The position numbers were made by a program, and so were the translations under genes. The notes below the pieces were generated by a model that searched no databases, had not been told where the DNA came from, and saw only the letters and a program-made list of their open reading frames with translations. A DNA stretch of 64,000 nucleotides, from NCBI GenBank assembly GCA_038363005.1, contig JBBQBI010000009.1, positions 2,376-66,375 on the forward strand, given 5' to 3'. This DNA comes from Rhodospirillales bacterium (GTDB taxonomy: Bacteria > Pseudomonadota > Alphaproteobacteria > Kiloniellales > JACOMY01). Position 1 is the stretch's first letter. Each line of letters starts with the position of its first letter. Positions 5,127 to 22,056 of the stretch are shown piece by piece.

Positions 5127-6206
5127 ATGGCCCTGCGCTTCCTTCTGCAACAGGACACCTCGGTCCCTGGCGGCGGTCACGCGCTGCTGTTCCTGCAAGG
5201 TGCCGGCAAGGTGCCGGGCGACGCCCGCCTGATCATCCGACGGCTGCAGCCCGAGGCCTGGCTGGGCCCGGCCGGCTGGCAGCCGACGCGTGCCGAGCTC
5301 ACCGTCGCGGGGCCGGAGCGCAGCGAAAATTCGCTGTTCCTCAAGCTCGGCCCCGCGGTGGTCGACCGCATCCCGCCCTGGACCAAGGTCGAGGTGACGC
5401 TGCCGTCGCTGCAGGAAAGCCAGGTCATCGTCTGGCCAGCCCTGGAGCAGTCGCCCGGCGGCGGTGGCGGCAGCGGCCAGGTCGCCTTTGGCGGCCGCCG
5501 GCCGCCGCAGCGCAGCGAGCCGAGCATCGTTCCGCCGCCGGCGCCGGAGCCTGAGCCCGCGCCAGAACCGGAGCCCGAACCACCGCCGCCGGCCCCGGCG
5601 CCGGCGCCCTTCCTGACCGCCGACCGGCCGCCGCAGCCGCCACCGCTGCCGAAGCGGCGGCGCCGCGTCTGGCCCTGGGTGCTGCTGCTGGTGCTGCTGG
5701 TCATCGGCGGCCTCGCCGTCTGGCAATGGCAGACCGGGGAGCCCGAGCGGCTGCTCTGCCGATGGGGTGTGCCCGAGATGGGCATCCTGACCTGCCAGCA
5801 GCCGGTGACCGATGCCTGTCCGGCCAGCCTGCCGCTGGATCAGCGCAGCGACTGCTATCTGAAGGCGCTCGACGCCGCCGCGCTCTTCGCGCTGGCCGAG
5901 CAGCTTGGCGTCAGCGGCAAGCCGGGCGAACGTGACCTGGCCTGGACGCTGTTCGCCGCGCTGGATGCCCGCGGCTATGCCACCGCGACCTTCGAGCTCG
6001 GCCTCTGCTACGACCCGCTGCTGCCACAGGGCTGCTCGCTGCAGCCGCGCCTCTCGGCCAACGCGCGCCAGGCGCTGCAGTATTACAGCCGCGCCGATGT
6101 CGCCGGCGCCGCCGAGGCCAAGCCACGCATCGGGGCGCTCTGCGGCTGGCTTAACGGCAAGAACGACTTGGCATCGCAGGCGGCGAAGTTCGAGTTCTGC
6201 AAGTGA
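5127..6206 (+). CDS. hypothetical bitopic membrane protein: cytoplasmic N-domain, Pro-rich linker, one TM, Cys-rich Sel1-like periplasmic domain
   Basis: The ATG lies 2 nt after the srfC stop and GC3 is high. The linker reads PPPAPEPEPAPEPEPEPPPPAPAPAP. KRRRRVWPWVLLLVLLVIGGLAVWQW is an N-in TM segment. The C-terminal part has many Cys and a Sel1-like ATFELGLCYD / ALQYYSRA pattern. Confidence 0.6.
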   Translation: MALRFLLQQDTSVPGGGHALLFLQGAGKVPGDARLIIRRLQPEAWLGPAGWQPTRAELTVAGPERSENSLFLKLGPAVVDRIPPWTKVEVTLPSLQESQVIVWPALEQSPGGGGGSGQVAFGGRRPPQRSEPSIVPPPAPEPEPAPEPEPEPPPPAPAPAPFLTADRPPQPPPLPKRRRRVWPWVLLLVLLVIGGLAVWQWQTGEPERLLCRWGVPEMGILTCQQPVTDACPASLPLDQRSDCYLKALDAAALFALAEQLGVSGKPGERDLAWTLFAALDARGYATATFELGLCYDPLLPQGCSLQPRLSANARQALQYYSRADVAGAAEAKPRIGALCGWLNGKNDLASQAAKFEFCK

Positions 6207-6210
6207 CCTG

Positions 6211-6233
6211 CCCTCTCCCCTCGCGGGAGAGGG
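6211..6233. repeat. REP-type GC-rich hairpin (CCCTCTCCC-N5-GGGAGAGGG)
   Basis: Perfect 9-bp stem, 6211-6219 pairing with 6225-6233, in the 50-nt gap between the orf359 stop and the vWA start. It belongs to the same family as the elements at 10133, 10217, 28917 and 28989. Confidence 0.7.
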
Positions 6234-6256
6234 GGGCCTTAACAGGAGCTGGTGAT

Positions 6257-8155: not shown

Positions 8156-8892
8156 CCGAGGCCGCCGCGCCGCTGCTGCGGGTCGAGCGGCTGGCCAAGC
8201 GGCGTGCCGGCGACGACCGCTCCTTCACGCTGGAGGTGCCGCGCCTGGCACTGGCGCCGGGCGGCGCGCTGGCGCTGGTCGGCCCCTCGGGCTGCGGCAA
8301 GTCCACGCTGATCGACCTGCTGGCATTGGCCCTGGCGCCCGACCGTGCGGCGCTGTTCCACCTGCGGGTCGGTGGCGGCCAACGCTGGCTCGACGTGGCC
8401 CGCGCCTGGAGCGAGCGCAAAGAGGACCTGCTGGGCCGCGCCCGCGCCCTGACGCTGGGCTATGTGCTGCAGACCGGCGGCCTGCTGCCCTTCCTGACGG
8501 CCGGCCGCAACATCGCCCTGCCGGCGGAGATCGCCGGGCGGCACGACGCCGCCTGGATCGCCGACCTGGCCGGGCGCCTGGGCATCGCGGCGCTGCTGGG
8601 CGAAATGCCCAGCCGCCTGTCGGTCGGACAGCGCCAACGCGTCGCCGTGGCGCGCGCCCTGGCGGCGCGCCCGCCGCTGGTGCTGGCCGACGAGCCGACG
8701 GCCACGCACGACCCGGCCAATGCCGAGGTGGTGATGGGCCTGCTGGTGGCGGCGACACGCGATGCCGGCGCCGCGCTGCTGCTGGCGACGCACGACCGCG
8801 CGCTGGTGCAGCGCCTGGGCCTGCCGGTCGCCGGCTTCGCCGTCAGCGAGGCCGGCAGCGCGGTCACCGCGCGCCTGGTGGAGGCGGCATGA
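8152..8892 (+). CDS. ABC transporter ATP-binding protein (MacB/LolD-like)
   Basis: The GTG start overlaps the vWA stop (GTGA). Walker A is GPSGCGKST, the Q-loop is VLQTGGLLP, the signature is LSVGQRQR, Walker B is LVLADEPT, and LLLATHD is the H-loop. Only the last 246 codons of listed ORF 6481..8892 are used. Confidence 0.85.
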   Translation: MTEAAAPLLRVERLAKRRAGDDRSFTLEVPRLALAPGGALALVGPSGCGKSTLIDLLALALAPDRAALFHLRVGGGQRWLDVARAWSERKEDLLGRARALTLGYVLQTGGLLPFLTAGRNIALPAEIAGRHDAAWIADLAGRLGIAALLGEMPSRLSVGQRQRVAVARALAARPPLVLADEPTATHDPANAEVVMGLLVAATRDAGAALLLATHDRALVQRLGLPVAGFAVSEAGSAVTARLVEAA

Positions 8893-10103
8893 AGCGCCGT
8901 CTGATCCTGCGCCTGGCGCTGGCCGAGGCGCGCCACGAGCGGCGCTTCCTGCTGCTCTCCGCCATCGGCCTGGCCGCTGTGCTGGCGCCGCTGCTGGTGC
9001 TACTGGCGCTGAAGGTCGGCGTGGTCGACGTGTTGCTGACCCGCCTGCTGGCCGACCCGGCCAATCGCGAGATCAAGGTGGCGCTGCACGGCGACTATGA
9101 CCGCGCCTTCCTGGACACGCTGGCGCAGCAGCCCGGCGTCGCCTTCCTGGTACCGCAGACCCGCTCGCTGGCCGCCACAGCACTGCTGGCGGCGGTCGAT
9201 GCCAACCCGCAGCAGACCGCCGATGCCGAGCTGATCCCCAGCGGCACCGGCGATCCCCTGCTGCCCGCCGCGCTGACCCTGGCGCCCAGCGACATCGCGC
9301 TCTCCGCCGACCTGGCCGAGCGGCTGACGCGGCAGCCCGGCGACAGCCTGCGACTGATCGTGACGCGGCAGAAGAACGGACGCGAGGAGCGTGTCTTCCT
9401 CGACCTCACGGTGGCGGCGGTGGTGCCGCGCGGCCGCCTGGGTGGGCGCAACGCGCTGGTGCCGGCGCCGCTGCTGGAGGCGCTGGAGGACTATCGCGAC
9501 GACATCGCGGTCAAGGCCTACGGCTGGACCGGTGCGAGCGAGCCACCGGTGCCGGACTCGCGGCACTACAGCCGCTTCCGCCTCTATGCCACCAGCCTGG
9601 AAGCCGTGGCGCCGCTGGCCGACCAGCTCGCCCGCCTGGGGGTGGAGACGGTGACCCGCGCCAGCGACATCGACAGCGTGACGCAGCTGAACCGCAGCCT
9701 GTCGCGCATCTTCGCCATCATCGCTGGGCTGGGCGGCCTGGGCTACGTCGCGGCGCTGGCGGTCAGCCTGCTGACCGACGTGGAACGCAAGCGCCGCACC
9801 CTGGCGCTGCTGCGCCTGCTGGGCCTGCCGCGCCGGGCGCTGGCCGCCCTGCCGCTGCTGCAGGCCGGATTGATCGCGCTGGCCGGCTTCCTGCTCGCCC
9901 TCGGGCTCTACTACCTCGCCGCCGAAGCGGTGAATCGCTCGTTCGCGCAAGGGCTTATCCCCGGCGAGCGGCTGGCCGGCCTGCCTGCGGGGCATATCCT
10001 GGCCGCCTTGGCCGTAACACTCCTGGTGGCTTTCGGTGCCGCGGCCTGGGCCGCGCGCCGGGCCTCACGCGTGGAACCGGCGGAGGGCTTGCGTGATGTC
10101 TAG
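8889..10103 (+). CDS. FtsX-family ABC permease (4 TM, large periplasmic loop)
   Basis: The ATG overlaps the ATPase stop (ATGA). There is an N-terminal TM, a loop of about 230 aa, then three C-terminal TMs ending in the typical ARRASRVEPAEGLR tail. It occupies the last 404 codons of listed ORF 7938..10103. Confidence 0.75.
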   Translation: MKRRLILRLALAEARHERRFLLLSAIGLAAVLAPLLVLLALKVGVVDVLLTRLLADPANREIKVALHGDYDRAFLDTLAQQPGVAFLVPQTRSLAATALLAAVDANPQQTADAELIPSGTGDPLLPAALTLAPSDIALSADLAERLTRQPGDSLRLIVTRQKNGREERVFLDLTVAAVVPRGRLGGRNALVPAPLLEALEDYRDDIAVKAYGWTGASEPPVPDSRHYSRFRLYATSLEAVAPLADQLARLGVETVTRASDIDSVTQLNRSLSRIFAIIAGLGGLGYVAALAVSLLTDVERKRRTLALLRLLGLPRRALAALPLLQAGLIALAGFLLALGLYYLAAEAVNRSFAQGLIPGERLAGLPAGHILAALAVTLLVAFGAAAWAARRASRVEPAEGLRDV

Positions 10104-11880
10104 TCTCCGCTTTGGGCGGACAGGATTGGAAGCCCCTCTCCCGCGCACAGCGCGGGGGAGGGGTTGGGGAGGGGGTGGTTGCCAGGTGGGCTCGCCTGTT
10201 GAGACCCCCTCCCCAGCCCTCCCCCGCTTCGCAGGAGAGGGAGTTCTGGCGGCGCTGTTGCTCGTTCTCTGTACGCTCTTCACACCCACCCAGGCCGCCG
10301 AGCCTTGGCCCGAGACCCTGGTCAATCCGCAGCCGGCCACCGGCGACCTGCTGGTGCCGCTGCCCTGCGGCGGCGCCATGGCTTTCCGCTGGGTGGCGAC
10401 GCCGGCGGGCACGTCCTGGCTCGACGACCTGCAGGTCTTCATGGGTCGCGCCGCCGACGAGGCCTCCTACAACGAGTTCGCCCATCTCTCGCACCTGGCC
10501 GGCGGCCTGTCGCTGGACGGCAGCGCCGCGCTGCGCGGCTACTGGCTGGGCAAGTACGAGGTGAACGAGGCGCAGTGGCAGGCGGTGATGGCAGGCGATT
10601 GCGCCACTCCGCCCGCCAGCGCGCGCCGCGCCGCCGGCGGGCATTCCTGGTTCGAGGCCGTGGCCTTCGCCGAGCGCCTGACCGAATGGCTGCTGCAGAA
10701 CCAGCCCGGCGCCCTGCCGAAGGCCGGCGAGACCACTGCCTACCTGCGCCTGCCGACCGAAGAGGAGTGGGAATACGCCACCCGCGGCGGCAGCGCGGTG
10801 ACCGAGGCCGAGTTCCGCGCCCCGCTGTTCCCCATGCAGGGGCCGCTGTCGGGCTATGCCTGGACGCAGGAGAGCCAAGCCTGCCAGGGCAAGCCGCAGG
10901 TCATCGGCCTGCTGAAGCCCAACCCCTTGGGCCTTTACGACCTGCTGGGCAATGTCGAGGAGCTGATGCTGGAGCCCTATCGCGGCACGCTGGCCGGCCG
11001 GCCGCATGGCCAGGTCGGCGGCCTGGTGGCGCGCGGCGGCTCCTGCCTGTTGAACGGCAGCCAGCTGCGCTCGGCACTGCGTACCGAGTATCCGCCCTTC
11101 GATGTGCACAGTGGCCAGGCGCTTCGCCTGCCGCTGCTGGGTTTCCGCCTGACCATCGCCGCGCCGCTGGCGATCGACGCCGCGCGCATCGCCGCGCTGA
11201 AGGGCGACTGGAGCGACCTGGTGGCCGCCCGCCAGGGTGACGCCGGCGCCGATCCCCTGGCGGTGGTCGACCAGGTGGCGGCCGAGCTGACCGACCTGCA
11301 GGCGCGCGACCGGCTGAGCGCGGCGCTGCTGGCGCTGCGCAGCCGCGAGGGCGCGCGCAAGGAGGCCGAGGCCCGCGCCCTGCAGTCGCTGCTGCTGGCC
11401 GGCACCGCCATGGCCAAGAGCTACTACGACCTAGCGAAGAACGACCAGGCGCTGGCCGGCTTCGCCGCCGACTACCAGAAGCAGCTGGACAAGAACCCCG
11501 ACCCGGCCTCGGCCGGGCACAAGCAGTACAAGGCGTTGCTGGAGAGCCTGCAGGCCAAGCGGGCGGAACTGGCTGGGCGCCTGGCGCTGGCCGGCGCCGC
11601 CTATCTGGAGGTGCTGCTGCAGACCGCCGAGGGGGCCGATCCGGCGGCGCGCGCCGACCAGCTGGCGCTGCTCAAGGACCGCATCGCCCGCCTGGGGCAG
11701 CTGGCCGCCGGCAGCGACGCCGCCGCCCGCGCGCAGCTGCTGGACCTCGCCGCCTGCGTGGTGGCGCAGGCCGACGACCTGGCGGCGGGCCGAACCGAGG
11801 ATTCCAGCGTTTACCTGGGGGAGTACGTCGCGCTGGCGGCTACGCCGGGCGGCCAGACCGCCAGCGGCTGCCGCCTGTAA
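10096..11880 (+). CDS. FGE-sulfatase (SUMF1/PvdO-type) domain protein with a helical C-terminal extension; start uncertain
   Basis: Motifs are GYWLGKYEVNEAQW, HSWFEAVAFAERL, RLPTEEEWEYATRGG, NPLGLYDLLGNVEELM and RGGSC. The signal-like LAALLLVLCTLFTPTQA/AEP follows the REP-encoded stretch. ATG 10096 overlaps the permease stop, but the true start could be CTG/TTG at about 10246-10258. Confidence 0.75.
   Translation: MSSLRFGRTGLEAPLPRTARGRGWGGGGCQVGSPVETPSPALPRFAGEGVLAALLLVLCTLFTPTQAAEPWPETLVNPQPATGDLLVPLPCGGAMAFRWVATPAGTSWLDDLQVFMGRAADEASYNEFAHLSHLAGGLSLDGSAALRGYWLGKYEVNEAQWQAVMAGDCATPPASARRAAGGHSWFEAVAFAERLTEWLLQNQPGALPKAGETTAYLRLPTEEEWEYATRGGSAVTEAEFRAPLFPMQGPLSGYAWTQESQACQGKPQVIGLLKPNPLGLYDLLGNVEELMLEPYRGTLAGRPHGQVGGLVARGGSCLLNGSQLRSALRTEYPPFDVHSGQALRLPLLGFRLTIAAPLAIDAARIAALKGDWSDLVAARQGDAGADPLAVVDQVAAELTDLQARDRLSAALLALRSREGARKEAEARALQSLLLAGTAMAKSYYDLAKNDQALAGFAADYQKQLDKNPDPASAGHKQYKALLESLQAKRAELAGRLALAGAAYLEVLLQTAEGADPAARADQLALLKDRIARLGQLAAGSDAAARAQLLDLAACVVAQADDLAAGRTEDSSVYLGEYVALAATPGGQTASGCRL
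10133..10241. repeat. two REP-type hairpins (10133-10163 and a degenerate copy at 10217-10241)
   Basis: CCCCTCTCCCGCGC-aca-GCGCGGGGGAGGGG forms a 14-bp stem with one mismatch. CCCTCCCCCGC-ttc-GCAGGAGAGGG is the degenerate copy. Both lie inside the 5' part of the FGE-domain reading frame. Confidence 0.65.
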
Positions 11881-11917
11881 TCGAGATGCTAGACTGTTCG
11901 AAGTGGAGAGCTTGCCC

Positions 11918-12709
11918 ATGACCGCCCGCATCGCCCCGCGACCGCTGCCGCCACCCGCCCGCCCGCTGCGGCGGGCCGCGACACTGCTGCTTGCCGCCAC
12001 GATGGCGCTGGCCGGCTGCGCCTCGCAGCGCACCGCAGGCCCCAGCTTCGATGCCAGCGCCCCTGGCCTCACCGCCGACCAGCGCACGGTGCGCGAGGTG
12101 GCGCAGAAGGTCACGCCGCCGGAGGAGCAGGGCGGCAACAACTGGTTCGGTGACAACGCCATCGTCCTTCTGGCGGCCGCCGGCTGCGTCGCCGGCGCGG
12201 TGGTCGGCGGTTCGGCGCGCGGCTGCCTGACCGGCGCGGTGATCGGTGGCCTGGCCGGCGCGGTGGCCCGCATCACCGTGTTCGACAAGCGCGACAGCTA
12301 CGCCAACGACAAGGATTTCGTGAACGCGGTGTCCGACGAGATGGACCGCGTGCTGGCCGAGAACGAGCAGCTGGTGCCGGCGGCCGAGCGCCTGGCCGAC
12401 GCGCACGAGCTGACCCTGTCGCAGCTGAAGGAGGCCTATGGCCGCGGCAGCATCGGCAAGGCGGAGTACCGCAAGCAGGTGGAGCCGCTGCTGGTCGACG
12501 AGCAGGCTTTGGCCTACATCGCTGAATCCAACAAGCAGCTGGCCAGCGACCTGGACAAGGCGCTGACCGGGGTCAACGTCGCCACCTCGCAGCAACAGCG
12601 GCTGGAGGACCAGGAAGGCGACTTCCTGGCCGATTCCGGCCGCATCCAATATGCCCAGGAACGCCTGTCCGGTGCCCTCGCCCAGGTGCCGAAAGAGGTC
12701 CTGAAGTAG
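11918..12709 (+). CDS. lipoprotein with a glycine-zipper segment and a coiled-coil C-terminal domain
   Basis: A GGAGAG RBS precedes ATG 11918 and the lipobox is MALAGC. The glycine zipper reads AAGCVAGAVVGGSARGCLTGAVIGGLAGAV. It is a paralogue of 12812..13564. Confidence 0.65.
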   Translation: MTARIAPRPLPPPARPLRRAATLLLAATMALAGCASQRTAGPSFDASAPGLTADQRTVREVAQKVTPPEEQGGNNWFGDNAIVLLAAAGCVAGAVVGGSARGCLTGAVIGGLAGAVARITVFDKRDSYANDKDFVNAVSDEMDRVLAENEQLVPAAERLADAHELTLSQLKEAYGRGSIGKAEYRKQVEPLLVDEQALAYIAESNKQLASDLDKALTGVNVATSQQQRLEDQEGDFLADSGRIQYAQERLSGALAQVPKEVLK

Positions 12710-12811
12710 CCGCCGTCACTCTGGGCAAAAGCATCCACAGGCTTTGATGGCGGGGCTATGCCACGAAGTCGCCACGTAACACGCAGAAGGTTTCCTGCCG
12801 GAGTTCACCCG

Positions 12812-13564
12812 ATGCTGAAGCAAATGATGGTCCTCGTCGCCGCCGCCAGTCTGGCCCTGTCAGGCTGCGCCAGCGGTTCGTCGCGCTACAGCAGCAGCAA
12901 CAACAGCCACCTGACGCCGGACCAGAAGGTGCTGCGCGCCAACGCCGCGCGCGTCGATCCGGAGAACGCCGGCAGCAACACGGTCGGCGAGGCCGTGGTG
13001 CTGGGCGCCGTCATCCTGGGCGCGGTCGGCTGCGGCATCGCGCTGCTGGCCGGCGGTAACGGCGGCGACTGCGCGGCGGCCGGCGTCGGCGGCGCGGCGG
13101 TGGGCGCGGCCGGCGGCTACATCGCCGGCAAGATGGTGCAGAAGGAACAGAAGGACTATGCCAGCCGCGAGGCCTATCTGGCGGACGTGATCGACGCCGC
13201 CGACACCGAGATCGCCGAGAACCGCCGCGCCGCCGATGCCGCCCAGCGCGTCACCGCGCAGCACGAGCGCCGCATCGACCAGCTGAATGCGCAGTACGCG
13301 CAGAAGAAGATCAGCAAGAAGGACTATCGCGACGAGGTCGCCGAGATGAGCATCGACCGCGACGCTATCGCCCTGGCAGTGGAAACCAACCAGCAGAAGA
13401 TCGCCGAGATGGAGGACCTGATCGACCAGGGCGGCCGCAGCAGCGACCTGCGCGCGCTGCGCGATCGCCGCGACGCGCTGGACGAGGAGAACCGGGCATT
13501 GGAGCGCCAGCTGGAAGAGATGGTGGCGCTGCTGTCCTCGACCCCCTCGGCGATGCAGTCATGA
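12812..13564 (+). CDS. lipoprotein with a glycine-zipper segment and a coiled-coil C-terminal domain (paralogue)
   Basis: The lipobox is LALSGC. The glycine zipper reads GAVGCGIALLAGGNGGDCAAAGVGGAAVGAAGGYIAG. The C-terminal helical region aligns by eye with the preceding protein (DSYANDKDF.. versus KDYASREAY..). Confidence 0.65.
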   Translation: MLKQMMVLVAAASLALSGCASGSSRYSSSNNSHLTPDQKVLRANAARVDPENAGSNTVGEAVVLGAVILGAVGCGIALLAGGNGGDCAAAGVGGAAVGAAGGYIAGKMVQKEQKDYASREAYLADVIDAADTEIAENRRAADAAQRVTAQHERRIDQLNAQYAQKKISKKDYRDEVAEMSIDRDAIALAVETNQQKIAEMEDLIDQGGRSSDLRALRDRRDALDEENRALERQLEEMVALLSSTPSAMQS

Positions 13565-14073
13565 GGCTGCCGCTCGCCATCCTGGCGCTGCTCGCGCTGC
13601 CGGCGCTGGCCGGCTGTGGCGGCTGCAGCGGCGACCCCGCCAGGGACGGCTTCGTCTGCGGCGTCAACTCGCTGAGCAAGGGCACCTACGACAAGCGCCA
13701 GGAGGCGCTGGAATCGGAGGCCGGGACCAAGCAGGCACAGGCGCAGCAGAGCGAACAGGAACGCCTGGCGGCCGAGGCGCGCGAGAAGCAGAGCGCCGCC
13801 GATGCGCGCGCGCTGGAGCAGAAGCTGGCCGACCTGGACCGCGCCATCGCCAATCGCCAGGCCGAGCTGCAGCAGGCCAAGGCCAAGGCCGGCGGCGACC
13901 GCGTCGCCGAGCTGAGGGCCCTCGAGCAGAAACTGGCCGAACTGCAGCAGCGCTATGCCAAGCTGCAGGCCGATGCCGCGGCCTCCAAATCAACCACGGC
14001 GGAGGTTGCCGACCTGGAGGCGCGCAACGCCGAGCTGCGCCGCCTGCTCGACCAGATGATCAAGAGCCTGTAG
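13561..14073 (+). CDS. small coiled-coil lipoprotein
   Basis: It shares an ATGA overlap with the upstream gene. The lipobox is PALAGC. The rest is a Q/A/E/K-rich heptad-like sequence. Confidence 0.6.
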   Translation: MRLPLAILALLALPALAGCGGCSGDPARDGFVCGVNSLSKGTYDKRQEALESEAGTKQAQAQQSEQERLAAEAREKQSAADARALEQKLADLDRAIANRQAELQQAKAKAGGDRVAELRALEQKLAELQQRYAKLQADAAASKSTTAEVADLEARNAELRRLLDQMIKSL

Positions 14074-14077
14074 CAGC

Positions 14078-15163
14078 ATGGCCGCGCCGGGGGAGCCGAC
14101 ACCAGACGAAGAACGCCGTGGCGGCCCGCGCGCCGTGGCGATCGCTGCCTGGCTGGCGCTTACCCTGATTCTCGGCGCCCTGGCGGTGGTCACACTGCAC
14201 GGCTGCGGTATCCGGCTGTTCGGCAACACGCTGCTGGACTTCTGCCCGGAGGAACCGGAGCAGGCGCTAGGCCCGCCGCCGGCCCTGCTGGCCGAGCGCG
14301 AGCGGGCCGACCGGCTGGACGAGCGGCTGCAGAACCTGAAGCTCGAGGTCGCCGCCATCGACTACTGCCCGACGCCGCCGGAGGTGCAGGTGGCGGAAAA
14401 GCCACCCGAAAAACCGCCGGAGAAGCCACCCGAGAAGCCGCCCGAAAAGCCCCCTGAGAAGCCGCCGGAGCAGGCCTGCAAGGACGTGCCGCCGGAGGAT
14501 CGCAAGGTCGACCTCTACCTGCTGCTCGACGCCTCGGGCTCCTTCGAGGAGGACCTGCCGTCGATCCGCAAGACCCTGCAGGACCTGATCACCCAGGCGG
14601 CGCAGGGCAAGATCAAGGGCAAGATCCGCCTCGGCCTCGGCAGCTTCATCGACAAGCCGCTGCCGGCCTATCCGCAGCTCTACACCTACAAGCACCACCA
14701 GAGCCTGACCGAGGACTTCGGCGCGGTGCTGAAGGCGTTGCGTGGCATCAAGATCTACGAGAACTACGACGAGCCGGAAGCGCAGCTCGAGGCCATGCTG
14801 GAGGCCGCCGGGCGCGCCGGGCAGATCGGCTATGACAACGAGGCCGAGCGCCTGCTGGTGGTGATCACCGATGCCGACTATCACCGCGCCGGCGACTACC
14901 CGGCGCCGGCCGAGGACGGCAAGGCCGACGGCAACGCGTTGAACGAGGACTACCCCTCGGTCGCCCAGGTGAAGCGCGCGCTGGAGAAGGCTGACCTGAC
15001 GCCGCTGTTCCTGGTAACGGCGGACGCCGCCGGCTACTACCGCAACCTGGTCAAGCAGCTCGGCCGCGGCAACGTCGTGACGATCACCTCGAACTCCAGC
15101 AACCTGCTGGCCGGCCTCGACCAGGGCGTCAAGCAGGTCTGCGGCGAAGGCATCTCGCAGTAA
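14078..15163 (+). CDS. membrane-anchored integrin-beta-I-like (vWA/MIDAS) domain protein with an (EKPP)6 stalk
   Basis: It has an N-in TM anchor, a conserved GCGIRLFGNTLLDFCPEE box, a short coiled coil and an (EKPP)6 repeat. The ectodomain carries DLYLLLDASGSFEEDL (MIDAS DASGS, nt 14528-14542), RLGLGSFIDKPL, YTYKHHQSLTE, DEPEAQLEAMLEA, RLLVVITDADYHRAGDY, DYPSVAQV..LFLVT and SNSSNLL. Confidence 0.8.
   Translation: MAAPGEPTPDEERRGGPRAVAIAAWLALTLILGALAVVTLHGCGIRLFGNTLLDFCPEEPEQALGPPPALLAERERADRLDERLQNLKLEVAAIDYCPTPPEVQVAEKPPEKPPEKPPEKPPEKPPEKPPEQACKDVPPEDRKVDLYLLLDASGSFEEDLPSIRKTLQDLITQAAQGKIKGKIRLGLGSFIDKPLPAYPQLYTYKHHQSLTEDFGAVLKALRGIKIYENYDEPEAQLEAMLEAAGRAGQIGYDNEAERLLVVITDADYHRAGDYPAPAEDGKADGNALNEDYPSVAQVKRALEKADLTPLFLVTADAAGYYRNLVKQLGRGNVVTITSNSSNLLAGLDQGVKQVCGEGISQ
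14396..14467 (+). repeat. six tandem 12-nt coding repeats encoding (EKPP)6
   Basis: The units are gaaaagccaccc, gaaaaaccgccg, gagaagccaccc, gagaagccgccc, gaaaagccccct and gagaagccgccg. The peptide is identical in all six units while the DNA is diversified synonymously. Confidence 0.9.
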
Positions 15164-16344
15164 TGCGCCGCATCACCCCAGTGCTGCTGTGGCTCACGCT
15201 CGTCGCGCTGCTGGTCGGCGGCAGCCTGCTGGTGCTGGAGGGCTGCGGCATCCGGCTGTTCGGCGGCACGCTGCTGAACTTCTGTCCGGAGGAGGCGGAG
15301 GCCCCCAAGGGCGCGCCACCGGACCTGGCGATCGAGGAAGATCGCAACGATCGCCTGCAGGACGAACTGCACCAGCTGCGCCTGCAGCTGGCCGCGGTCG
15401 ACGACTGTCCGCTCCCGCCGATCCCGCTGCCACCGGAGCCGGTACCGCCGCCCACACCGGCACCTGCACCTGCACCTGCACCTGCACCTGCACCTGCACC
15501 TGCACCTGCACCCGCCCCGGCGCCGACTCCCGCGCCGACACCCGCGCCAGCTCCGGCTCCGGCTCCGGCCCCCGCGCCTGCTCCAGCACCCACCCCGGCG
15601 CCCACTCCCGCGCCCACGCCCGCGCCGACCCCGGCGCCGCAGACCAGCGAGCAGGCCTGCACTGAGCTGCCGCCGAACGAGCGGCCGATCGACCTCTACC
15701 TGCTGGTCGACACCTCGGCGTCCTTCGCCGACGACATGTCGTCGATCCGCGCCACCATCCAGGACCTGATCGCCCGCCAGGCGACCGGCCGCATCAAGGG
15801 CAAGGTGCGTATCGGCCTGGGCACCTTCCAGGACAAGCCGAACGCCCAGGCGCCCAGCAACTACACCTACAAGCACCACACCAACCTGACCGAGGCCTTT
15901 GCCGAGGTGCTGAAGTCGCTGCGCAGCACCGCCACCGATCCGAACTACGACGTCCCGGAAGCGCAGCTCGAGGCCATGCTGGAGGCCGCCGGCCGTGCCG
16001 GGCAGATCGGCTTCAAGCAGGGCGCCGCGCGCTTCCTCGTGGTGGTGACCGACGCCGCCTACCACCAGGCCGGCGACTATCCGGGCCCGGCCGAGGATGG
16101 CCGGCCCGACGGCAACCCGACCAACGAGGATTACCCCTCAGTGGCGCAGGTGCGCGCCATCCTGCAGGCCAATGACATCGTGCCGCTGTTCCTGGTGGCT
16201 GGCGGCGAGGAAGCGACCTATCGCAGCCTGGTCAAGCAGCTCGGGCGCGGCAGCGTCGCCCGGCTGGGGGCCTCCAGCGAGAACCTGCTGCAGGCGCTGG
16301 ACAGCGCGGTCAAGACGGTCTGCGGCGAAGGCATCGTGCAGTAG
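15163..16344 (+). CDS. membrane-anchored integrin-beta-I-like (vWA/MIDAS) domain protein with a (PA/PT)n stalk; tandem paralogue
   Basis: The ATG shares one nt with the upstream TAA (TAATG). It has the same architecture, with GCGIRLFGGTLLNFCPEE, DLYLLVDTSASFADDM (DTSAS, nt 15709-15723), RIGLGTFQDKP, YTYKHHTNLTE, DVPEAQLEAMLEA, RFLVVVTDAAYHQAGDY, DYPSVAQV..LFLV and a VCGEGIVQ end. Confidence 0.8.
   Translation: MRRITPVLLWLTLVALLVGGSLLVLEGCGIRLFGGTLLNFCPEEAEAPKGAPPDLAIEEDRNDRLQDELHQLRLQLAAVDDCPLPPIPLPPEPVPPPTPAPAPAPAPAPAPAPAPAPAPAPTPAPTPAPAPAPAPAPAPAPAPTPAPTPAPTPAPTPAPQTSEQACTELPPNERPIDLYLLVDTSASFADDMSSIRATIQDLIARQATGRIKGKVRIGLGTFQDKPNAQAPSNYTYKHHTNLTEAFAEVLKSLRSTATDPNYDVPEAQLEAMLEAAGRAGQIGFKQGAARFLVVVTDAAYHQAGDYPGPAEDGRPDGNPTNEDYPSVAQVRAILQANDIVPLFLVAGGEEATYRSLVKQLGRGSVARLGASSENLLQALDSAVKTVCGEGIVQ
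15461..15508 (+). repeat. perfect hexanucleotide tract (CACCTG)x8 inside the Pro-Ala/Pro-Thr stalk (about 15418-15650)
   Basis: Eight uninterrupted CACCTG units were read directly. They sit within a stretch of about 230 nt encoding APAPAP...TPAPTPAP. Confidence 0.9.
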
Positions 16345-16345
16345 C

Positions 16346-17926
16346 CTAGGCAGCCAGCAACGCCGCTAGCCGACTGTCGCCGCTCAGCGTCGCCGGGCGC
16401 GGCTGGCCCAGCAGGTCGATGGCGGTGGGCACCACGTCGAAGGCGCTGACCAGGCCGCGGTCACCCGGCGCGATTTCGGCCCCGGCGAACCAGGCGAAGC
16501 CATGGCCACCGGTGTGGCCGCCGGTGCGGCGCAGCGGCATCGGGCCGATGGCGCCCAGCGTCGGGTGGTTAAGGCCGCGCGCCACGCCCCGCCACAGCAC
16601 CACCAGGTCGGCGCCGGTCGGTGCCAGGTCCAGCGGGTCGCTGGCGGCCGGCCGCTCGAAGCGCTCCACCAGCGGCTCGCCGCTCTCCAGGTCGCGGCAG
16701 GCGCCGATCAGGGCTTCCAGGCGATCGAGTTCGGCCTTGTAGTCGGCCAGCGCCACGCGTCCCCGCGCCTCGCGCCCCTGCAGGTTGACGCGCACGCGGC
16801 CATCATAAAAGGCCGGCAGGGCAAAGGCGCGCATGGCCGACCAGAAGGGCTGGTACCAGCGGCCCGGCAGCCAGGCCAGATTGCCCAGCGGCAGCTCCGG
16901 CCGGCCGGCCGCGCGCCGCAGCGCCCGCGCCAGGCGCCACAGCGGGCGCCGCCGCGCGACGAAGCCTTGTCGCAGCAGGCGGCTCCAGTTCTGGTCCAGG
17001 GGCAGCACCGGCAAGCCGCCGGGCGACGCTGTCCAGGCCGGCGGCACCTGCAGCCCGGCCCGGCCGTAGCGGTCGCGATAGAGCAGCTCGGGCAGCAGCA
17101 CCATGCTGGGCAGGTCGCCGTTGTTGGTGCCCATGCCATGCATGTTGAACAGCAGCAGCGTGGCATCGGGACAGGCGGCCGATAGCGTAGCCACCAGGCG
17201 GTCGAGCGCGCGGTAGACCGTCGCCAGGCCCTCAGCCGCCGCCGCCTGCGACGGCAGCGCGTGGGCCGGATGCGTGGGATCGACGCCGTGCCACAGCGCC
17301 TCGATGGCCGAGTGTGGTTCGCCGGCGACCACCAGCCCCAGTTGCCAGTCGGGCAGGCGTTCGGTCAGCAGCCAGCGCGCGATGGCGCTGCGCCGGTCGG
17401 CGGCGTCGGCCAGTCCCTCGCCCATCTGCCGCGCCAGGGCCGGTGCGTGCCAGGCCAGGCCGTAAAGATGCTCCGGCGCCGGGTAGCGGCCGAAGCGGTC
17501 GTGGATCTCGGCCGCCAGGCCGGCCGGACGCTCGTTCGGCGGAACGCCGGGATCGTGCGCCCCCCAGTTCACCATGCCCTGGGTGGACGGCGCGTTGGCT
17601 AGGTCGAAGTAGGGCGGGTCAAACACCACGCTTTTCACGCCAAGGGCGGCGGGAAAAGGCCGCAGGCGCGTGCTGCTCTGCGTGGCGTCATAGCGCTGCG
17701 GGTCGAACTCCACGGCGGTGTAGCGCCTGGCGGCGTCCGGTGTCAGGCCACTGGCGACATGCTCCCAGGCCAGCCCGGTGTAGCGCGCCGGCCCATGTTC
17801 CAGTGCGAAACGCGCGCTGCGCTGGCGGATCGCCGCCAGCGCCGGCAGCGCGCCGGCCCGCAGCAGCGGCTCGGCGACACCAAGGTCCAGGCCGTCGAGG
17901 CCGATCATCAGCAGTCGCCCGGTCAT
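16346..17926 (-). CDS. alkaline-phosphatase-superfamily protein (type I phosphodiesterase/nucleotide pyrophosphatase-like)
   Basis: The N-terminus reads MTGRLLMIGLDGLDLG. Further motifs are RYTGLAWEHVASG and the C-terminal GGHTGGHGF. A GGAGG RBS lies upstream of ATG 17926. I saw no C/S-x-P-x-R sulfatase motif. Confidence 0.7.
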   Translation of the reverse strand: MTGRLLMIGLDGLDLGVAEPLLRAGALPALAAIRQRSARFALEHGPARYTGLAWEHVASGLTPDAARRYTAVEFDPQRYDATQSSTRLRPFPAALGVKSVVFDPPYFDLANAPSTQGMVNWGAHDPGVPPNERPAGLAAEIHDRFGRYPAPEHLYGLAWHAPALARQMGEGLADAADRRSAIARWLLTERLPDWQLGLVVAGEPHSAIEALWHGVDPTHPAHALPSQAAAAEGLATVYRALDRLVATLSAACPDATLLLFNMHGMGTNNGDLPSMVLLPELLYRDRYGRAGLQVPPAWTASPGGLPVLPLDQNWSRLLRQGFVARRRPLWRLARALRRAAGRPELPLGNLAWLPGRWYQPFWSAMRAFALPAFYDGRVRVNLQGREARGRVALADYKAELDRLEALIGACRDLESGEPLVERFERPAASDPLDLAPTGADLVVLWRGVARGLNHPTLGAIGPMPLRRTGGHTGGHGFAWFAGAEIAPGDRGLVSAFDVVPTAIDLLGQPRPATLSGDSRLAALLAA

Positions 17927-18038
17927 ACGCCGCCCCTCCACCGGCACCTTTCTCCGCCTCGACCCGCTTCATGGCAAGGGCTTGCGAGCGGCTGCGCCGG
18001 CCGGCATTAAGAACAGGTCGCGCAGCACCGGAGCCGGC

Positions 18039-19095: not shown

Positions 19096-21675
19096 ATGCA
19101 ACGCGGCGGGCTGCAGCTGGAAGACCTGGGACCTGAACCGCAGCGCGGGCTGCGGCGCGGGCTGTGGTGTTTCAGCCTGCTGGTCCTGGCTGCGCTCATC
19201 GCGGTGACCTTCATCGAGCGTGACAACGAGCAGGCCGCCCTGCTGCAGAGCGCGCAGCGCGAAGCCGACAACCTGGCACGCTCCATCGCCCAGCACGGTG
19301 CCCGCACGGTCGGCGAAGGCGATCGCATGCTGCAGGTGCTGATCGACGACATCGCGGCGGACTTTCCCGCCGACCTGCACGACGAGGCCGCGCTGCATGA
19401 CCTGCTGACCCTGCGCCTGGCTACGGCGCCGGAGCTGCGCGCGCTCTCCATCGCCGACAGTTCGGGCTATCTGATCGCCAGCTCGGTGCAGTACCCGATC
19501 GGGCAGATCAGCGTCGCCGACCGCAGCTACTTCAACCAGCATCGCGACGATCCCGATGCCGGCCTGCTGCTGGGCGCACCGATGATCGGGCGACTCTCCG
19601 GACAGCCGTTGATCACGCTGTCGCGCCGCATCGACAACGCCGACGGCAGTTTCCGTGGCGTGCTGCTGGCCGGGCTGGACCCGGCTTACTTCGTGGAATT
19701 CTACCAGGCCATCGACCTGGGGCCGCACAGCCAGATCCTGCTGCTCGGCACCGACGGTCGCCTGCTGGTCTCCAGCCCGCCCAAGGGTTCGCCCGGCCAG
19801 CCCCTGGACTGGCCGTTGCTGCAGCAGCTGCTGGATGGCGGCAATGGTGGCACGATCAGCGGTGCCGGCCTGGATGGGGATGGCGACTACGTCTTCGCTT
19901 TTCGCCGCCTAGCCGATTATCCGCTGATCGCCCTGGTCGGTCTGGATCGCGAAGCACTGCTGTCGGGCTGGGGGCACGGCGAGATCTGGCGGCTGGTGCT
20001 GATCAGCCTGCTGGGCGCAGGCCTGCTGGCGCTGACCGCGGCACTGATCCGTTCAATCGGACAGATCTACGACAGCCGCCGGGTCGCCCACACCCGCGCC
20101 CAGGCGCTGGCGACGGTGATCGATTCCATCGCCGACGGCCTGATGCTGATCGACGCCGACGGCCGCGTCCTGCTGCAGAACCCCAAGGCGGTGGAGGTCT
20201 TCGGCGGGCCGACCTGGCAGATAGGCCACGAGAACCAGCCGACCGGCACCCAGGTGCTGCGAATCAACGGCGTGACGCCGTTGCCCGACAACGAGCGCCC
20301 GCTGGAACGCGCGCTGCGCGGCGAGGCGGTGGAGCAGCAGCTCTATCTGGTGCGGCGTGAAGGTGACCCCACGGTCTCGGCGATCAGCGGCTCCAGCCGC
20401 CCGGTGCGCGACGCCCGCGGCGAGGTGATCGGCGCCGTCGCCCTGCTGCGCGATGTGACGCAGCAGCGCCAACTCGACGAGCGCAACCGCACCACGCAAC
20501 GCCTGGAAGCCCTGGGCCAGCTGACCGGCGGCGTGGCGCATGACTTCAACAACCTGCTGACCGTCATCACCGGCAGCGCCGAGGAGCTGCTGTCGGACAA
20601 GAAGGACGAACCGACGCGCCAGACCCTGGCCCAGATGATCCTGGAGACGGCCGAACGCGCCAGCCGCCTGACGCGGCATCTGTTGGCCTTTGCCCGGCAG
20701 CAGACGCTGGCCCCGCGACCGCTCGACGTGAACGAGCAGCTGGTGGGGCTGGAACGGCTGCTGGCGCGCACCCTGGGCACCACGATCGACATCCGCCTGA
20801 AGCTGCAACCCGACCTCTGGCCGGCGCAGGCCGATGCCAGCCAGCTGGAAACCGCGGTTATCAACCTGGCGGTCAATGCGCGCGATGCCATGCCGGGTGG
20901 CGGCAAGCTGGTGATCAACACCTATCGCACGACGATCCAGCCTGACAGTGCGCGCGCCACTGGCGGGCTCATGGGGGGCGTGCCGCCTGAAGTCAAACCA
21001 GGCGACTATGTCACCATCTGCGTGACCGACGCCGGCCAGGGCATGATGCCCGAGGTGGCGCGCCGTGCTTTCGACCCCTTCTTCACCACCAAGGATGTCG
21101 GCAAGGGTACCGGCCTGGGCCTCTCCATGGTCTATGGCTTCGCCCAGCAGTCCGGCGGTTTCCTGACTCTGGATACGCGTCCCGGGGTGGGCACCACGGT
21201 CTGCCTGCACCTGCCGCGCGCCGCCGGCGCCGGCAAGGCGGCACGCCCAGCCCCGGCGGCCACCGGCCAACTTCCGGCCGGGACCGCGGAACGCATCCTG
21301 CTGGTCGAGGACGATGCCGCCGTGCGCCGCCTGGTCGAGGAGCAGCTGCTGACCCTGGGCTATCGGGTCACCACGGCGTCCGACGGTCGCTCCGCGCTGA
21401 ACGTGCTGGGTGCCGGCCTGCCGCTCGACCTCATGCTGACCGACCTGGTGATGCCCAACGGCATCGACGGCCTGACGCTGTCGCAGGAGGCACGCCGCCT
21501 GCGCCCCGGCCTGAAGATCGTGCTGGCCACCGGCATCGCCGACCACGCCTCGCTCACCGACCGGCGGCCGGACCCCAGCATCCGCATCCTGCCCAAGCCC
21601 TTCCGCGGCCGGCAGCTGGCCCGCCTGCTGCGCGAGCTGCTCGACGAGCCGGCCGGCGAGACTGCGGCCCCATAG
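19096..21675 (+). CDS. hybrid sensor histidine kinase/response regulator (Cache-like sensor, PAS, HisKA, HATPase, REC)
   Basis: It has a TM segment and a Cache-like SVADRSYFNQH region, then a PAS region. The H-box is GGVAHDFNNLL, the N/G boxes are NLAVNARDAM and GTGLGLS, and the C-terminal REC domain reads ILLVEDDAAVR..MLTDLVMP. Confidence 0.9.
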   Translation: MQRGGLQLEDLGPEPQRGLRRGLWCFSLLVLAALIAVTFIERDNEQAALLQSAQREADNLARSIAQHGARTVGEGDRMLQVLIDDIAADFPADLHDEAALHDLLTLRLATAPELRALSIADSSGYLIASSVQYPIGQISVADRSYFNQHRDDPDAGLLLGAPMIGRLSGQPLITLSRRIDNADGSFRGVLLAGLDPAYFVEFYQAIDLGPHSQILLLGTDGRLLVSSPPKGSPGQPLDWPLLQQLLDGGNGGTISGAGLDGDGDYVFAFRRLADYPLIALVGLDREALLSGWGHGEIWRLVLISLLGAGLLALTAALIRSIGQIYDSRRVAHTRAQALATVIDSIADGLMLIDADGRVLLQNPKAVEVFGGPTWQIGHENQPTGTQVLRINGVTPLPDNERPLERALRGEAVEQQLYLVRREGDPTVSAISGSSRPVRDARGEVIGAVALLRDVTQQRQLDERNRTTQRLEALGQLTGGVAHDFNNLLTVITGSAEELLSDKKDEPTRQTLAQMILETAERASRLTRHLLAFARQQTLAPRPLDVNEQLVGLERLLARTLGTTIDIRLKLQPDLWPAQADASQLETAVINLAVNARDAMPGGGKLVINTYRTTIQPDSARATGGLMGGVPPEVKPGDYVTICVTDAGQGMMPEVARRAFDPFFTTKDVGKGTGLGLSMVYGFAQQSGGFLTLDTRPGVGTTVCLHLPRAAGAGKAARPAPAATGQLPAGTAERILLVEDDAAVRRLVEEQLLTLGYRVTTASDGRSALNVLGAGLPLDLMLTDLVMPNGIDGLTLSQEARRLRPGLKIVLATGIADHASLTDRRPDPSIRILPKPFRGRQLARLLRELLDEPAGETAAP

Positions 21676-21738
21676 CTGCGCGCCCTGACGACGGCTGGCG
21701 GCTTGCGTTGGCGCGGCCAGGAACCCACATTCTGCTGC

Positions 21739-22023
21739 ATGACCGCTTCTCCCCGACTGCCCTGGCAGTTCTACCTCCTCGGCGCCCTGGGTCTGGCGCT
21801 GACCATAGGTCTGCTGTTCGTCGCCTTCACCGTGGCGATCGTGCTGCTGCCGCTCGTCCTGGTCGCCGTGCTGTGGCAGCGCTGGCGCTGGCAGCAGCGC
21901 CTGCGCGCCGCCATGGCCCAGGCGCCGCGGGCCCAGGCGCCGGGGGCACGGCCGGCCGACGGCAAGCCGGTGATCGAGGGCGACTACGTCGTGGTCGACG
22001 AGACGCGCCCGGATCCCCGCTGA
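21739..22023 (+). CDS. small hypothetical membrane protein
   Basis: GC3 is high. A single long hydrophobic stretch YLLGALGLALTIGLLFVAFTVAIVLLPLVLVAVLW is followed by an R/Q-rich tail. I recognise no family. Confidence 0.4.
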   Translation: MTASPRLPWQFYLLGALGLALTIGLLFVAFTVAIVLLPLVLVAVLWQRWRWQQRLRAAMAQAPRAQAPGARPADGKPVIEGDYVVVDETRPDPR

Positions 22024-22056
22024 CCCCCTGGCCCAGCCGGTCGCGACCGGCCTAGC

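Follow-up and report, generated by a model that had tools for sequence, protein, structure and literature searches.

In the integrin β subunit the βI domain is inserted in a hybrid domain and is accompanied by a PSI domain, four I-EGF modules and a β-tail. Proteins with a similar domain have been met in bacteria. A protein of Trichodesmium erythraeum is named as the first bacterial βA-domain homologue to be reported in PMC3192720, where that source cites Johnson et al. (2009), and CglD of Myxococcus xanthus matches the βI domain of integrin β3 in HHpred, with a gliding defect as the consequence of a D656N mutation in its MIDAS, the adhesion site that depends on a metal ion (bioRxiv 10.1101/2023.10.19.562135). 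Given these two precedents, a βI domain in a bacterium is not new. What I describe here is the company that such a domain keeps in a stretch of 64,000 nucleotides, called the window below, from a Rhodospirillales bacterium (GenBank assembly GCA_038363005.1, contig JBBQBI010000009.1, positions 2,376 to 66,375 of the forward strand). Two adjacent genes in the window, intB1 and intB2, each encode a βI domain preceded by a predicted membrane anchor, and with this pair an extended srf operon comes to its end. I propose, with moderate confidence, that IntB1 and IntB2 are periplasmic, cation-dependent binding heads of the Srf envelope system.

A recent account of that system (bioRxiv 10.64898/2026.09.18.752743) presents the N-terminal part of SrfA (SrfA-N) as a platform, kinase-like but without catalysis, on which first SrfB and then SrfC docks, by an AlphaFold 3 model with an interface score (ipTM) of 0.66. 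It proposes a Lol-like reading of the ABC module and finds 'vWA proteins', that is, proteins with a von Willebrand factor A domain, beside the plasmid-borne srfABC of X. stockiae; heads of the integrin-β type are not described in it. Nor did a search of the literature find a description of the architecture reported below (transmembrane helix, Cys box, coiled coil, βI domain), of its Srf distal module, or of fusions of SrfA-N to βI.

Two proteins with an integrin-type βI domain

IntB1 (361 residues; 14078-15163, + strand) and IntB2 (393 residues; 15163-16344, + strand) are paralogues that share one architecture: a transmembrane anchor predicted to lie with its N-terminus inside, a Cys box, a coiled coil, a Pro-rich tract (PEKP repeats in IntB1, a longer (AP/TP)n tract in IntB2) and a C-terminal βI domain of the integrin-β type. 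Identity between the two amounts to 61% in the last 234 residues and to 59% in the N-terminal 'GCGIRLFG..FCPEE' Cys box and the helix after it.

The family to which the domain belongs is clear from its scores. Against the Pfam profile Integrin_beta (PF00362, gathering cut-off 24.8 bits) IntB1 reaches 116.6 bits (E 2e-33) and IntB2 108.9 bits (E 4.4e-31), whereas the generic VWA profile (PF00092) yields 25.1 and 28.1 bits, and the VWA_2 profile 19.1 and 21.5 bits. A sequence search of the PDB returns integrin β chains exclusively (β7, β1, β3, β6, β2, β8), with E values down to 6e-21. Scanned with NCBIfam and PADLOC, neither IntB1 and IntB2 nor the neighbouring proteins could be assigned to a family or a defence system.

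The resemblance extends to single residues, as judged by a MAFFT alignment (A5) of the two proteins with a segment of β7 and with residues 109-359 of β3, typed in and 100% identical to PDB 1tye_B. The domain lies between C134 and C355 of IntB1 (14477-15142, +) and between C166 and C387 of IntB2 (15658-16323, +). I take the assignment of β3 residues to three metal sites to be settled by the structures of αVβ3 and αIIbβ3. The five MIDAS positions of β3 (D119, S121, S123, E220, D251) are identical in both window proteins (D151, S153, S155, E234 and D265 of IntB1), and the same is true of the synergistic metal-binding site, or SyMBS (D158, N215, D217, P219 and E220 of β3; D192, N229, D231, P233 and E234 of IntB1). 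At the site adjacent to the MIDAS, the ADMIDAS, the β3 pair D126 and D127 is E158/D159 in IntB1 and D/D in IntB2. Every ligand position of the three sites is therefore kept, with D126 replaced by Glu in IntB1 only, and both proteins carry a βI domain with intact predicted ligand residues for three cations.

A model of full-length IntB1, built on a 16-sequence alignment, has a mean predicted local distance difference test (pLDDT) of 67.6, with a vWA core modelled confidently, a transmembrane helix at residues 18-37 and a further helix at 68-95, and its best 50 matches in the PDB are all integrin β chains. For comparison of folds this mediocre model gave way to one of the domain only, built on a 60-sequence alignment, with a mean pLDDT of 95.0 and a predicted template modelling score (pTM) of 0.92. 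Foldseek again lists nothing but integrin β chains among the top 50 matches of the domain model; their TM-scores, normalised to the query, are 0.73-0.84, most of them 0.81-0.84, and root-mean-square deviations mostly of 2.5-3.4 Å, up to 4.2 Å, over about 247 columns. The best scores belong to bent or closed headpieces (9e8a 0.84, 3nid 0.83), and several ligand-bound or open forms lie lower, at 0.73-0.78. By each measure of sequence and of fold that was applied, IntB1 and IntB2 are βI-type vWA proteins of the PF00362 family.

The domain is somewhat shorter than that of β3. Both proteins lack 20 residues in A5, and with them the specificity-determining loop and its C177-C184 disulfide; a second deletion takes away 11 residues. 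At the position of β3 R261, a residue that contacts the propeller of the α subunit by inserting into it, the window proteins have Pro.

A preliminary description of the two genes, made from the letters of the DNA, had anticipated much of this. Its limits for both reading frames agree exactly with the list of open reading frames (ORFs), the β3 blocks that it quoted are correct and each aligns as it said, and its claim that the metal ligands are retained stands. The two comparisons that it proposed, of Integrin_beta with generic VWA profiles and of a predicted structure with integrin βI domains, both come out on the side of integrin. It went too far in calling the domain near full-length: the blocks are collinear, but two deletions separate it from β3. 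Of the two features that it thought a model might lack, the ligand positions are present and the specificity-determining loop is absent.

One loop deserves mention beside the three sites. The stretch 'PAPAEDGKADGNALNEDYPS' (IntB1 residues 275-294, window 14900-14960, with a counterpart in IntB2) stands in for a longer integrin loop. D280, G281, D284, E290 and D291 are invariant in the subfamily, G285 and N286 among close relatives, and the modelled loop has a pLDDT above 95 and no regular secondary structure. It could be a further cation site.

Both genes are real and native. Orthologues of IntB1 at 60-87% identity are encoded at loci L001, L002 and L005, and orthologues in this range come from several metagenome-assembled genomes and metagenomes. 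Both are under purifying selection, with a crude estimate of dN/dS, made by comparison with their closest orthologues, of about 0.19 in each case. Their GC content (0.69-0.72) and their GC content at third codon positions (GC3, 0.86-0.92) are the same as those of neighbouring genes. ORFs antisense to both (e.g. 15037-16065, minus strand) were considered and set aside as the usual by-product of DNA with 70% GC, not genes.

How far does the domain extend beyond this lineage? Searched exhaustively by HMMER with the IntB1 domain, a set of 1.84 billion cluster representatives yielded 1,189 at E ≤ 1e-3, 523 at E ≤ 1e-10 and 77 at E ≤ 1e-30; these last 77 beat the E value expected for metazoan integrins, as scaled from the PDB search. 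The best 150 of the 1,189 score at least 114 bits, above what is expected of any metazoan integrin, are about 33-57% identical over the entire domain and range in length from 202 to 3,678 residues. All 74 relatives that were sampled match Integrin_beta; RTX repeats occur in 27 of them, and PEP-CTERM, bacterial Ig or bacterial cadherin domains in others. When 166 domains are compared by neighbour joining (NJ) and 165 are ordered by their distance from IntB1, human β3 comes 161st and human β7 163rd. The preliminary description had held the integrin-β vWA subfamily to be overwhelmingly eukaryotic, and for the nearest relatives of this domain that view does not hold, the closest in the 1,189 clusters being bacterial. 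The IntB clade of the NJ tree comprises 32 members: the two window proteins, 16 close relatives, 12 distant relatives with the transmembrane helix and Cys box, and two others (P0023 and P0032) that turn out to be fusions.

The metal-ligand columns are kept in 146-165 of the 166 domains, with the exception of the N215 position, and at the two ADMIDAS columns D is found in 142 and in 159. The N215 column is Gly in 140 and Asn in 22, the window lineage among them (IntB1 N229, 14762-14764). The presence of Asn here, as in metazoan integrins, probably reflects either convergence on a fully liganded SyMBS or its retention. A protein of the gregarine Porospora cf. gigantea (XP_068378503.1, cluster P0024 / P0169) scores 183.7 bits, closer than the human integrins, and hints at an exchange between bacterium and protist or at an old eukaryotic lineage of the domain.

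Anchor, cysteines and spacers

Each protein has just one hydrophobic segment, a helix of 22 residues at its N-terminus, with 18 residues ahead of it in IntB1 and 3 in IntB2. In IntB1 hydropathy and a lipobox scan place it at residues 19-40 (14132-14197, +), close to the helix of the model. It is followed by L-H-G-C in IntB1 and L-E-G-C in IntB2. The canonical lipobox was taken to be [LVI][ASTVI][GAS]C, charged residues just upstream being excluded, and the residue at -2 breaks this rule in both proteins (H in IntB1, E in IntB2); the 'GCG' cysteine was accordingly rejected as a lipobox. Arginines precede the helix, most clearly in IntB2 and its orthologues. A cysteine outside any lipobox and arginines before the helix argue for an N-in signal anchor with the remainder of the protein in the periplasm, and the IntB heads would then face the periplasm from a single N-terminal anchor in the inner membrane.

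Beyond the anchor of IntB1 comes the membrane-proximal Cys box, C43-GIRLFGNTLLDF-C56 (14204-14245, +; subfamily consensus CG[ILV]x[LW]PG...C), which the model renders as a β-hairpin of low confidence. The coiled coil follows, a helix in the AlphaFold 2 model at residues 68-95 (14279-14362, +) with a 4-3-4-3 spacing of hydrophobic residues, and it ends at C97; L80 and C97 are invariant in the subfamily alignment (A4). The conserved cysteines are 43/56/97/134/355 in IntB1 and 28/41/82/166/387 in IntB2. In A4 C134 and C355 are invariant like C97, and C56 is nearly so. All five positions had been listed in the preliminary description together with the anchor, the Cys box and the short coiled coil, and all of these features are found.

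The Pro-rich tract occupies the interval from C97 to C134 in IntB1 ((PEKP)n; 14369-14470, +) and from C82 to C166 in IntB2 ((AP/TP)n; 15409-15651, +). It is encoded by tandem DNA repeats, of 12/24/36 nt at 14394-14470 and of 6/12/30/36 nt at 15455-15639. Its length is about 34 residues in proteins of the IntB1 type and about 80 in those of the IntB2 type, a difference that is kept among orthologues, and within the IntB2 type the length varies from one orthologue to the next. Short members of the subfamily lack the tract, with only 3-4 residues between the equivalents of C97 and C134 in A4, and it follows that the tract is a lineage-specific insertion between two conserved cysteines. It had previously been called a stalk. 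The tract itself is there; that it serves as a stalk needs the qualification just given. If it does serve so, the two heads, on spacers of unequal length, would stand at different heights in the periplasm.

The positions of the cysteines suggest how they might pair. C134 and C355 flank the domain, one before its first strand and the other at the end of its last helix (IntB1 ends 6 residues past that helix), and most likely they staple its termini together, in place of the integrin hybrid domain. C43 and C56 would close the membrane-proximal hairpin. The odd cysteine, C97 at the end of the coiled coil, would then be free to form an interchain disulfide.

The srf operon and a proposed part for the heads

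An extended, translationally coupled srf operon has intB1 and intB2 as its last genes, a context that the preliminary description had not seen: with the srf genes go genes for an ABC/FtsX pair, a protein resembling formylglycine-generating enzyme (FGE) and lipoproteins. The junctions overlap or nearly abut and all genes lie on the same strand. intB1 starts 4 nt past the stop codon of the preceding gene, lpp3, and intB1 and intB2 overlap in the sequence TAATG. It is these tight same-strand junctions that make intB1-intB2 the distal end of a long operon.

A further tie to Srf comes from fusions. P0023, P0032 and P0027 end in PF00362 and begin with a long extension in which NCBIfam recognises SrfA, namely its N-terminal part (positions about 25-145 of the profile NF040486), with E values of 2e-18, 2e-25 and 4e-11, respectively. 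P0023 and P0032 fall inside the IntB clade and P0027 is related to it. The gene for P0023 stands directly upstream of those for a canonical SrfA and SrfB (L021). That for P0032 stands between another βI gene and a gene for an SrfA-N::VWA_2 protein, after which comes SrfA, and the contig ends before any srfB (L022). At L020 P0026, of the IntB type, is encoded directly upstream of SrfB and of an SrfA that is complete (280.8 bits against a cut-off of 150). SrfA-N is in fact fused through one transmembrane helix to heads of three kinds, trypsin-like (L012:7767-9635, a Cereibacter 'serine protease' beside SrfA), VWA_2 (L022:2483-4288) and βI (L021:7380-9083), and the fusion genes stand in arrays directly upstream of srfA/srfB. 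The βI head is thereby put across the membrane from SrfA-N. I regard the SrfA-N::βI fusions as evidence of the Rosetta-stone type for a βI head in the periplasmic arm of Srf, and the series as a whole suggests that Srf has a set of periplasmic heads which can replace one another, a lipocalin, a trypsin-like protease and a generic vWA besides the βI head.

The gene order of the window is kept, at 60-87% identity, at L001 and L002/L003, and at 33-47% identity with a single βI gene in other organisms (L010, L011, L018). L019 is rearranged. Its IntB block, divergent from trypsin-SrfA-SrfB-SrfC, has no ABC/FtsX genes and keeps IntB, the FGE-fold protein, a glycine-zipper lipoprotein, a 170-residue lipoprotein and a second vWA protein. 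The FGE-fold gene occurs beside intB in all loci with enough sequence. The annotated srf loci of Cereibacter end after the gene of the FGE family and those of Methylobacterium end earlier, both without lipoproteins and IntB, and with this joint absence they behave like a single optional unit at the distal end. At L018 and L019 there is a second protein with transmembrane helix, Cys box, coiled coil and Cys...Cys, this one bearing a generic head of the VWA_2 type. With two proteins of the module per cassette in several lineages, tandem intB genes and TAATG coupling, the earlier suggestion that IntB1 and IntB2 work together gains support, and they probably act as a pair. In the Kiloniellales metagenome-assembled genome SMAG_U8705, contigs L007 and L009 look adjacent, and that genome probably has three tandem intB genes. 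A scan of metagenome contigs found at least 4 loci, a protein search with the subfamily profile made one addition (P0040), and in 72,556 plasmids tblastn found two weak matches to the βI domain.

The window opens within srfB (22-2409, +; PF07520, E 1.6e-252, profile positions 183-991), the 5' end of which lies beyond the window start. Next comes srfC (2416-5124, +; Virul_Fac, PF10139, E 1e-246), encoding a P-loop protein with the Walker A motif GPSQAGKS, and then the gene for a bitopic protein of 359 residues (5127-6206, +) with a cytoplasmic N-domain, a Pro-rich PAPEPEP linker, KRRRR before a transmembrane helix and a periplasmic domain with 8 Cys. The bitopic protein comes after SrfC in all srf loci seen and has no family assignment. 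It is followed by vWA650 (6203-8155, +), a periplasmic vWA protein of 650 residues with a signal peptide and a DxTxS motif, annotated in Cereibacter as 'vWA domain-containing protein'. PDB sequence searches with SrfB, SrfC and vWA650 gave nothing meaningful. The ABC transporter ATPase (8152-8892, +) is recognised by PF00005 and by synteny, and the permease of the FtsX/MacB/LolC type (8889-10103, +; start MKRRLIL) by PF02687.

The periplasmic protein of the FGE-sulfatase fold (10096-11880, +; PF03781, E 1.3e-23) has a signal peptide and a helical C-terminal half. Its start was taken as the ATG at 10096 by analogy with L001, the ORF opening at 10036. By inspection, with no formal alignment, it shows 'RGGSCLLNGSQLR' where catalytic FGEs have a Cys...Cys pair, and it has a helical C-terminal extension of about 250 residues. 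Its role may be structural or one of binding, without catalysis, as for GldK or PorK, in line with a weak match to TIGR03525 (E 1.6e-7). IntB was considered as an FGE substrate and rejected, also by inspection: the conserved 'FCPEE' and 'YCPTP' do not fit the sulfatase motif CxPxR.

Three lipoprotein genes separate it from intB1. Lpp1 (11903-12709, +; LAGC) combines a glycine zipper with a coiled coil and is a paralogue of Lpp2 (12758-13564, +; LSGC), in which a glycine-zipper hydrophobic hairpin is followed by a C-terminal coiled coil; Lpp3 (13561-14073, +; LAGC) is a coiled-coil lipoprotein of 170 residues with 3 Cys. Equivalents of Lpp2 and of Lpp3, the latter again of about 170 residues, are found at L010, L018 and L019. 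All three are predicted to be anchored in the envelope, in the inner or the outer membrane. In PADLOC Lpp2 weakly resembles (E 1.4e-7) the membrane region at the C-terminus of LeoBC, the Eleos defence system's dynamin-like protein, and it has weak SLATT_1 matches too.

On the far side of intB2, 1 nt from its stop, ends a convergent ORF of 533 residues (16346-17947, - strand) without Pfam, NCBIfam or PADLOC family. It is 73% conserved at L001 and absent from other IntB loci, and is for that reason probably outside the module. Just downstream, at 19096-24798, lie a hybrid histidine kinase (dCache-PAS-HisKA-HATPase-REC) and a regulator of the MalT/LuxR type; their occurrence in the same position at L001 makes them possible regulators of the operon. 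An integrin-α-like partner was sought nearby and dismissed, there being no FG-GAP α-subunit in the operon or among the large window ORFs that were scanned.

How might such heads work? I propose that each head would grip a partner by an acidic side chain held at the MIDAS cation, the neighbouring cations of ADMIDAS and SyMBS adjusting the affinity as they do in integrins. The two heads may associate through the coiled coil, perhaps reinforced by an interchain disulfide through unpaired C97. The partners would most likely be the cassette lipoproteins, the FGE-fold protein or both, since these are present or absent together with IntB. In this way the heads would link that part of the Srf machine which lies in the inner membrane with the outer envelope. 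Permeases of the FtsX/MacB type pass ATP-driven movements to periplasmic coiled-coil partners (FtsEX-EnvC, MacB), and the coiled-coil proteins of the cassette, IntB included, are candidates, speculatively, for coupling to such movements here.

Several considerations tell against this proposal. Metal binding, the partners and heterodimerisation all rest on prediction. The srfABC operon, labelled a 'virulence factor', is poorly understood and long orphaned. No NCBIfam match to SrfA-N is found in IntB1 or IntB2, and lacking that domain they would be linked to SrfB and SrfC via other membrane components, indirectly at best. At L005 the series ABC-FtsX-FGE-three lipoproteins-two IntB has no srf genes directly upstream. 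With C97 bonded to C134, the Pro-rich tract would form a loop instead of a stalk. Finally, the close relatives all come from metagenome-assembled genomes, with no cultured organism at hand.

The idea can be carried further, to a point where I find it unlikely: that Srf is an envelope-spanning machine for sensing or force coupling, with swappable heads (βI vWA, generic vWA, trypsin-like protease, lipocalin), in which capture at the MIDAS of a ligand from the periplasm or the envelope is coupled allosterically to the SrfB/SrfC NTPases. The signal would pass through the α7 helix, clamped by C134-C355 to the spacer and transmembrane helix, and in the fusion relatives the coupling would be direct, through SrfA-N. 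If true, this would make Srf a prokaryotic counterpart, possibly a forerunner, of integrin outside-in and inside-out signalling.

Two other explanations place the heads elsewhere. They might be cell-surface adhesins for molecules of a host or substratum, like CglD/CglB at focal adhesions or secreted RTX proteins, an idea encouraged by CglD, a β-integrin-like surface lipoprotein in which mutation of the MIDAS impairs gliding, by the many closest domain relatives that are RTX or PEP-CTERM proteins and probably exported, and by the loose linkage of srfABC to host colonisation and toxicity. It is hard to reconcile with an N-terminal inner-membrane anchor and the absence of a lipobox or of a signal for the type 1, type 5 or type 9 secretion systems (T1SS, T5SS, T9SS), so that the head cannot reach the surface without an additional export step; moreover, the fusions tether the head to cytoplasmic SrfA-N through one transmembrane helix. 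I consider it improbable. The same anchor could be viewed as a cleaved signal peptide, with the Cys of 'GCG' lipidated and a Lol-like ABC/FtsX complex sorting IntB and the three lipoproteins to the outer membrane. Throughout the subfamily there is indeed L at -3 and G/A/S at -1 before the Cys, removal of C43 would leave an even number of cysteines, and the Lol-like reading of the ABC module has been put forward (bioRxiv 10.64898/2026.09.18.752743). Yet most members have H, E, R, D or Q at -2 while the three neighbouring lipoproteins are canonical, the hydrophobic stretch of 22 residues is like that of a transmembrane helix, L019 has IntB without ABC/FtsX genes, and the SrfA-N fusions require a true transmembrane helix. 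This account, too, is improbable.

It is also conceivable that IntB proteins are not stable binding heads but assembly factors or chaperones for the FGE-fold protein or vWA650, in the manner of the vWA partners of MoxR, CbbQ and NorQ ATPases, which assist in metal insertion or in the remodelling of complexes. It is established that vWA proteins often partner ATPases in cofactor insertion; enzymes of the FGE family are metalloenzymes, and an ATPase, that of the ABC transporter, is encoded in the same operon as the FGE-fold protein. That ATPase, however, is of the ABC/FtsX type and not an AAA+ MoxR, the FGE-like protein has no obvious CxxxxC pair near 'RGGSC' (by inspection, with no formal alignment), and an anchor, coiled coil and spacer better fit a head that is held in position, all of which makes such a role very improbable. 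Scarcely any probability attaches to the last alternative, that a fragment of a eukaryotic integrin was recently acquired by horizontal transfer as a 'eukaryote-like' mimic. The strong block-by-block similarity to vertebrate integrins might have suggested it, as might a gregarine protein, from Porospora, among the nearer relatives, but the closest relatives are numerous and bacterial, human β3 and β7 come near the far end of the 165 sequences, the GC and GC3 values equal those of neighbouring genes, and the genes sit in a conserved bacterial operon. Recent transfer from eukaryotes is effectively refuted by the NJ distances and the native GC3.

The heads beside described systems

If IntB proteins are periplasmic binding heads of Srf, then srfABC gains a concrete periplasmic component, predicted to be cation-dependent, and together with the SrfA-N fusions this suggests an apparatus of Srf proteins that spans the envelope and in which one periplasmic head can be exchanged for another. 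The distal module (FGE-fold protein, glycine-zipper lipoprotein, coiled-coil lipoprotein and two vWA heads borne on transmembrane helix, Cys box and coiled coil) can be used to find and classify such systems. A βI domain with the ligand sets of all three integrin metal sites is, moreover, widespread and ancient-looking in bacteria beyond secreted adhesins, which bears on the origin of the integrin headpiece. Small βI domains without a hybrid domain offer material in which structural biology and biophysics can study how MIDAS, ADMIDAS and SyMBS act on one another.

With the metazoan βI domain (PF00362; human β3, β7, β1) the window heads share the fold, the ligand residues and the collinear DKP, DxPE, TDA and DYPS blocks, at an identity of only about 27-32%. 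IntB1 and IntB2 are nonetheless not integrin β subunits. They have no hybrid-domain insertion, PSI, I-EGF or β-tail (no other Pfam domain was found in them), their anchor is N-terminal and there is no C-terminal transmembrane helix with an NPxY tail. The loss of the specificity-determining loop with its disulfide, and Pro in place of R261, set them apart as well, as do a predicted setting in the bacterial periplasm and the lack of an FG-GAP partner among the window ORFs scanned. SibA-E of Dictyostelium (PF24909) have an integrin-β-flavoured vWA domain, and the window proteins score weakly against that profile (24.8 and 37.1 bits), a far weaker match than to PF00362; unlike IntB, they belong to a eukaryote, are membrane proteins of type I and have a tail that binds talin.

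Among bacterial proteins, the βA protein of the cyanobacterium Trichodesmium, compared here by citation, is reported to match more than 450 residues of a β subunit and to have no transmembrane helix. The nearest relatives of the domain outside the subfamily are Integrin_beta proteins of the RTX/T1SS kind (WP_269780293.1 of Methylobacterium sp. Leaf118; P0016, a 'Ca2+-binding RTX toxin-like protein'), with 37-39% identity, scores up to 258 bits and the same metal-ligand columns, but these are large multidomain exoproteins, without the module of transmembrane helix, Cys box and coiled coil, in unrelated gene neighbourhoods. IntB also resembles the SrfA family (NF040486), which belongs to the same operons and is likewise a single-pass inner-membrane protein with a disulfide-containing periplasmic head; IntB differs from it in having no SrfA-N, a βI head rather than a lipocalin-like one and a distal position in the operon. 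CglD, compared by description (bioRxiv 10.1101/2023.10.19.562135), is like IntB a Cys-rich bacterial vWA protein that matches the βI domain of β3 and has a DxSxS MIDAS; in CglD the MIDAS matters for function, and CglD belongs to an envelope-spanning machine. It is a lipoprotein of 1,130 residues in the outer membrane or at the surface, with EGF-like repeats and a COMP-like Ca2+-binding region, and the machine it serves is the Agl-Glt motor. In function CglD is the nearest studied bacterial example; in architecture, location and system the two differ.

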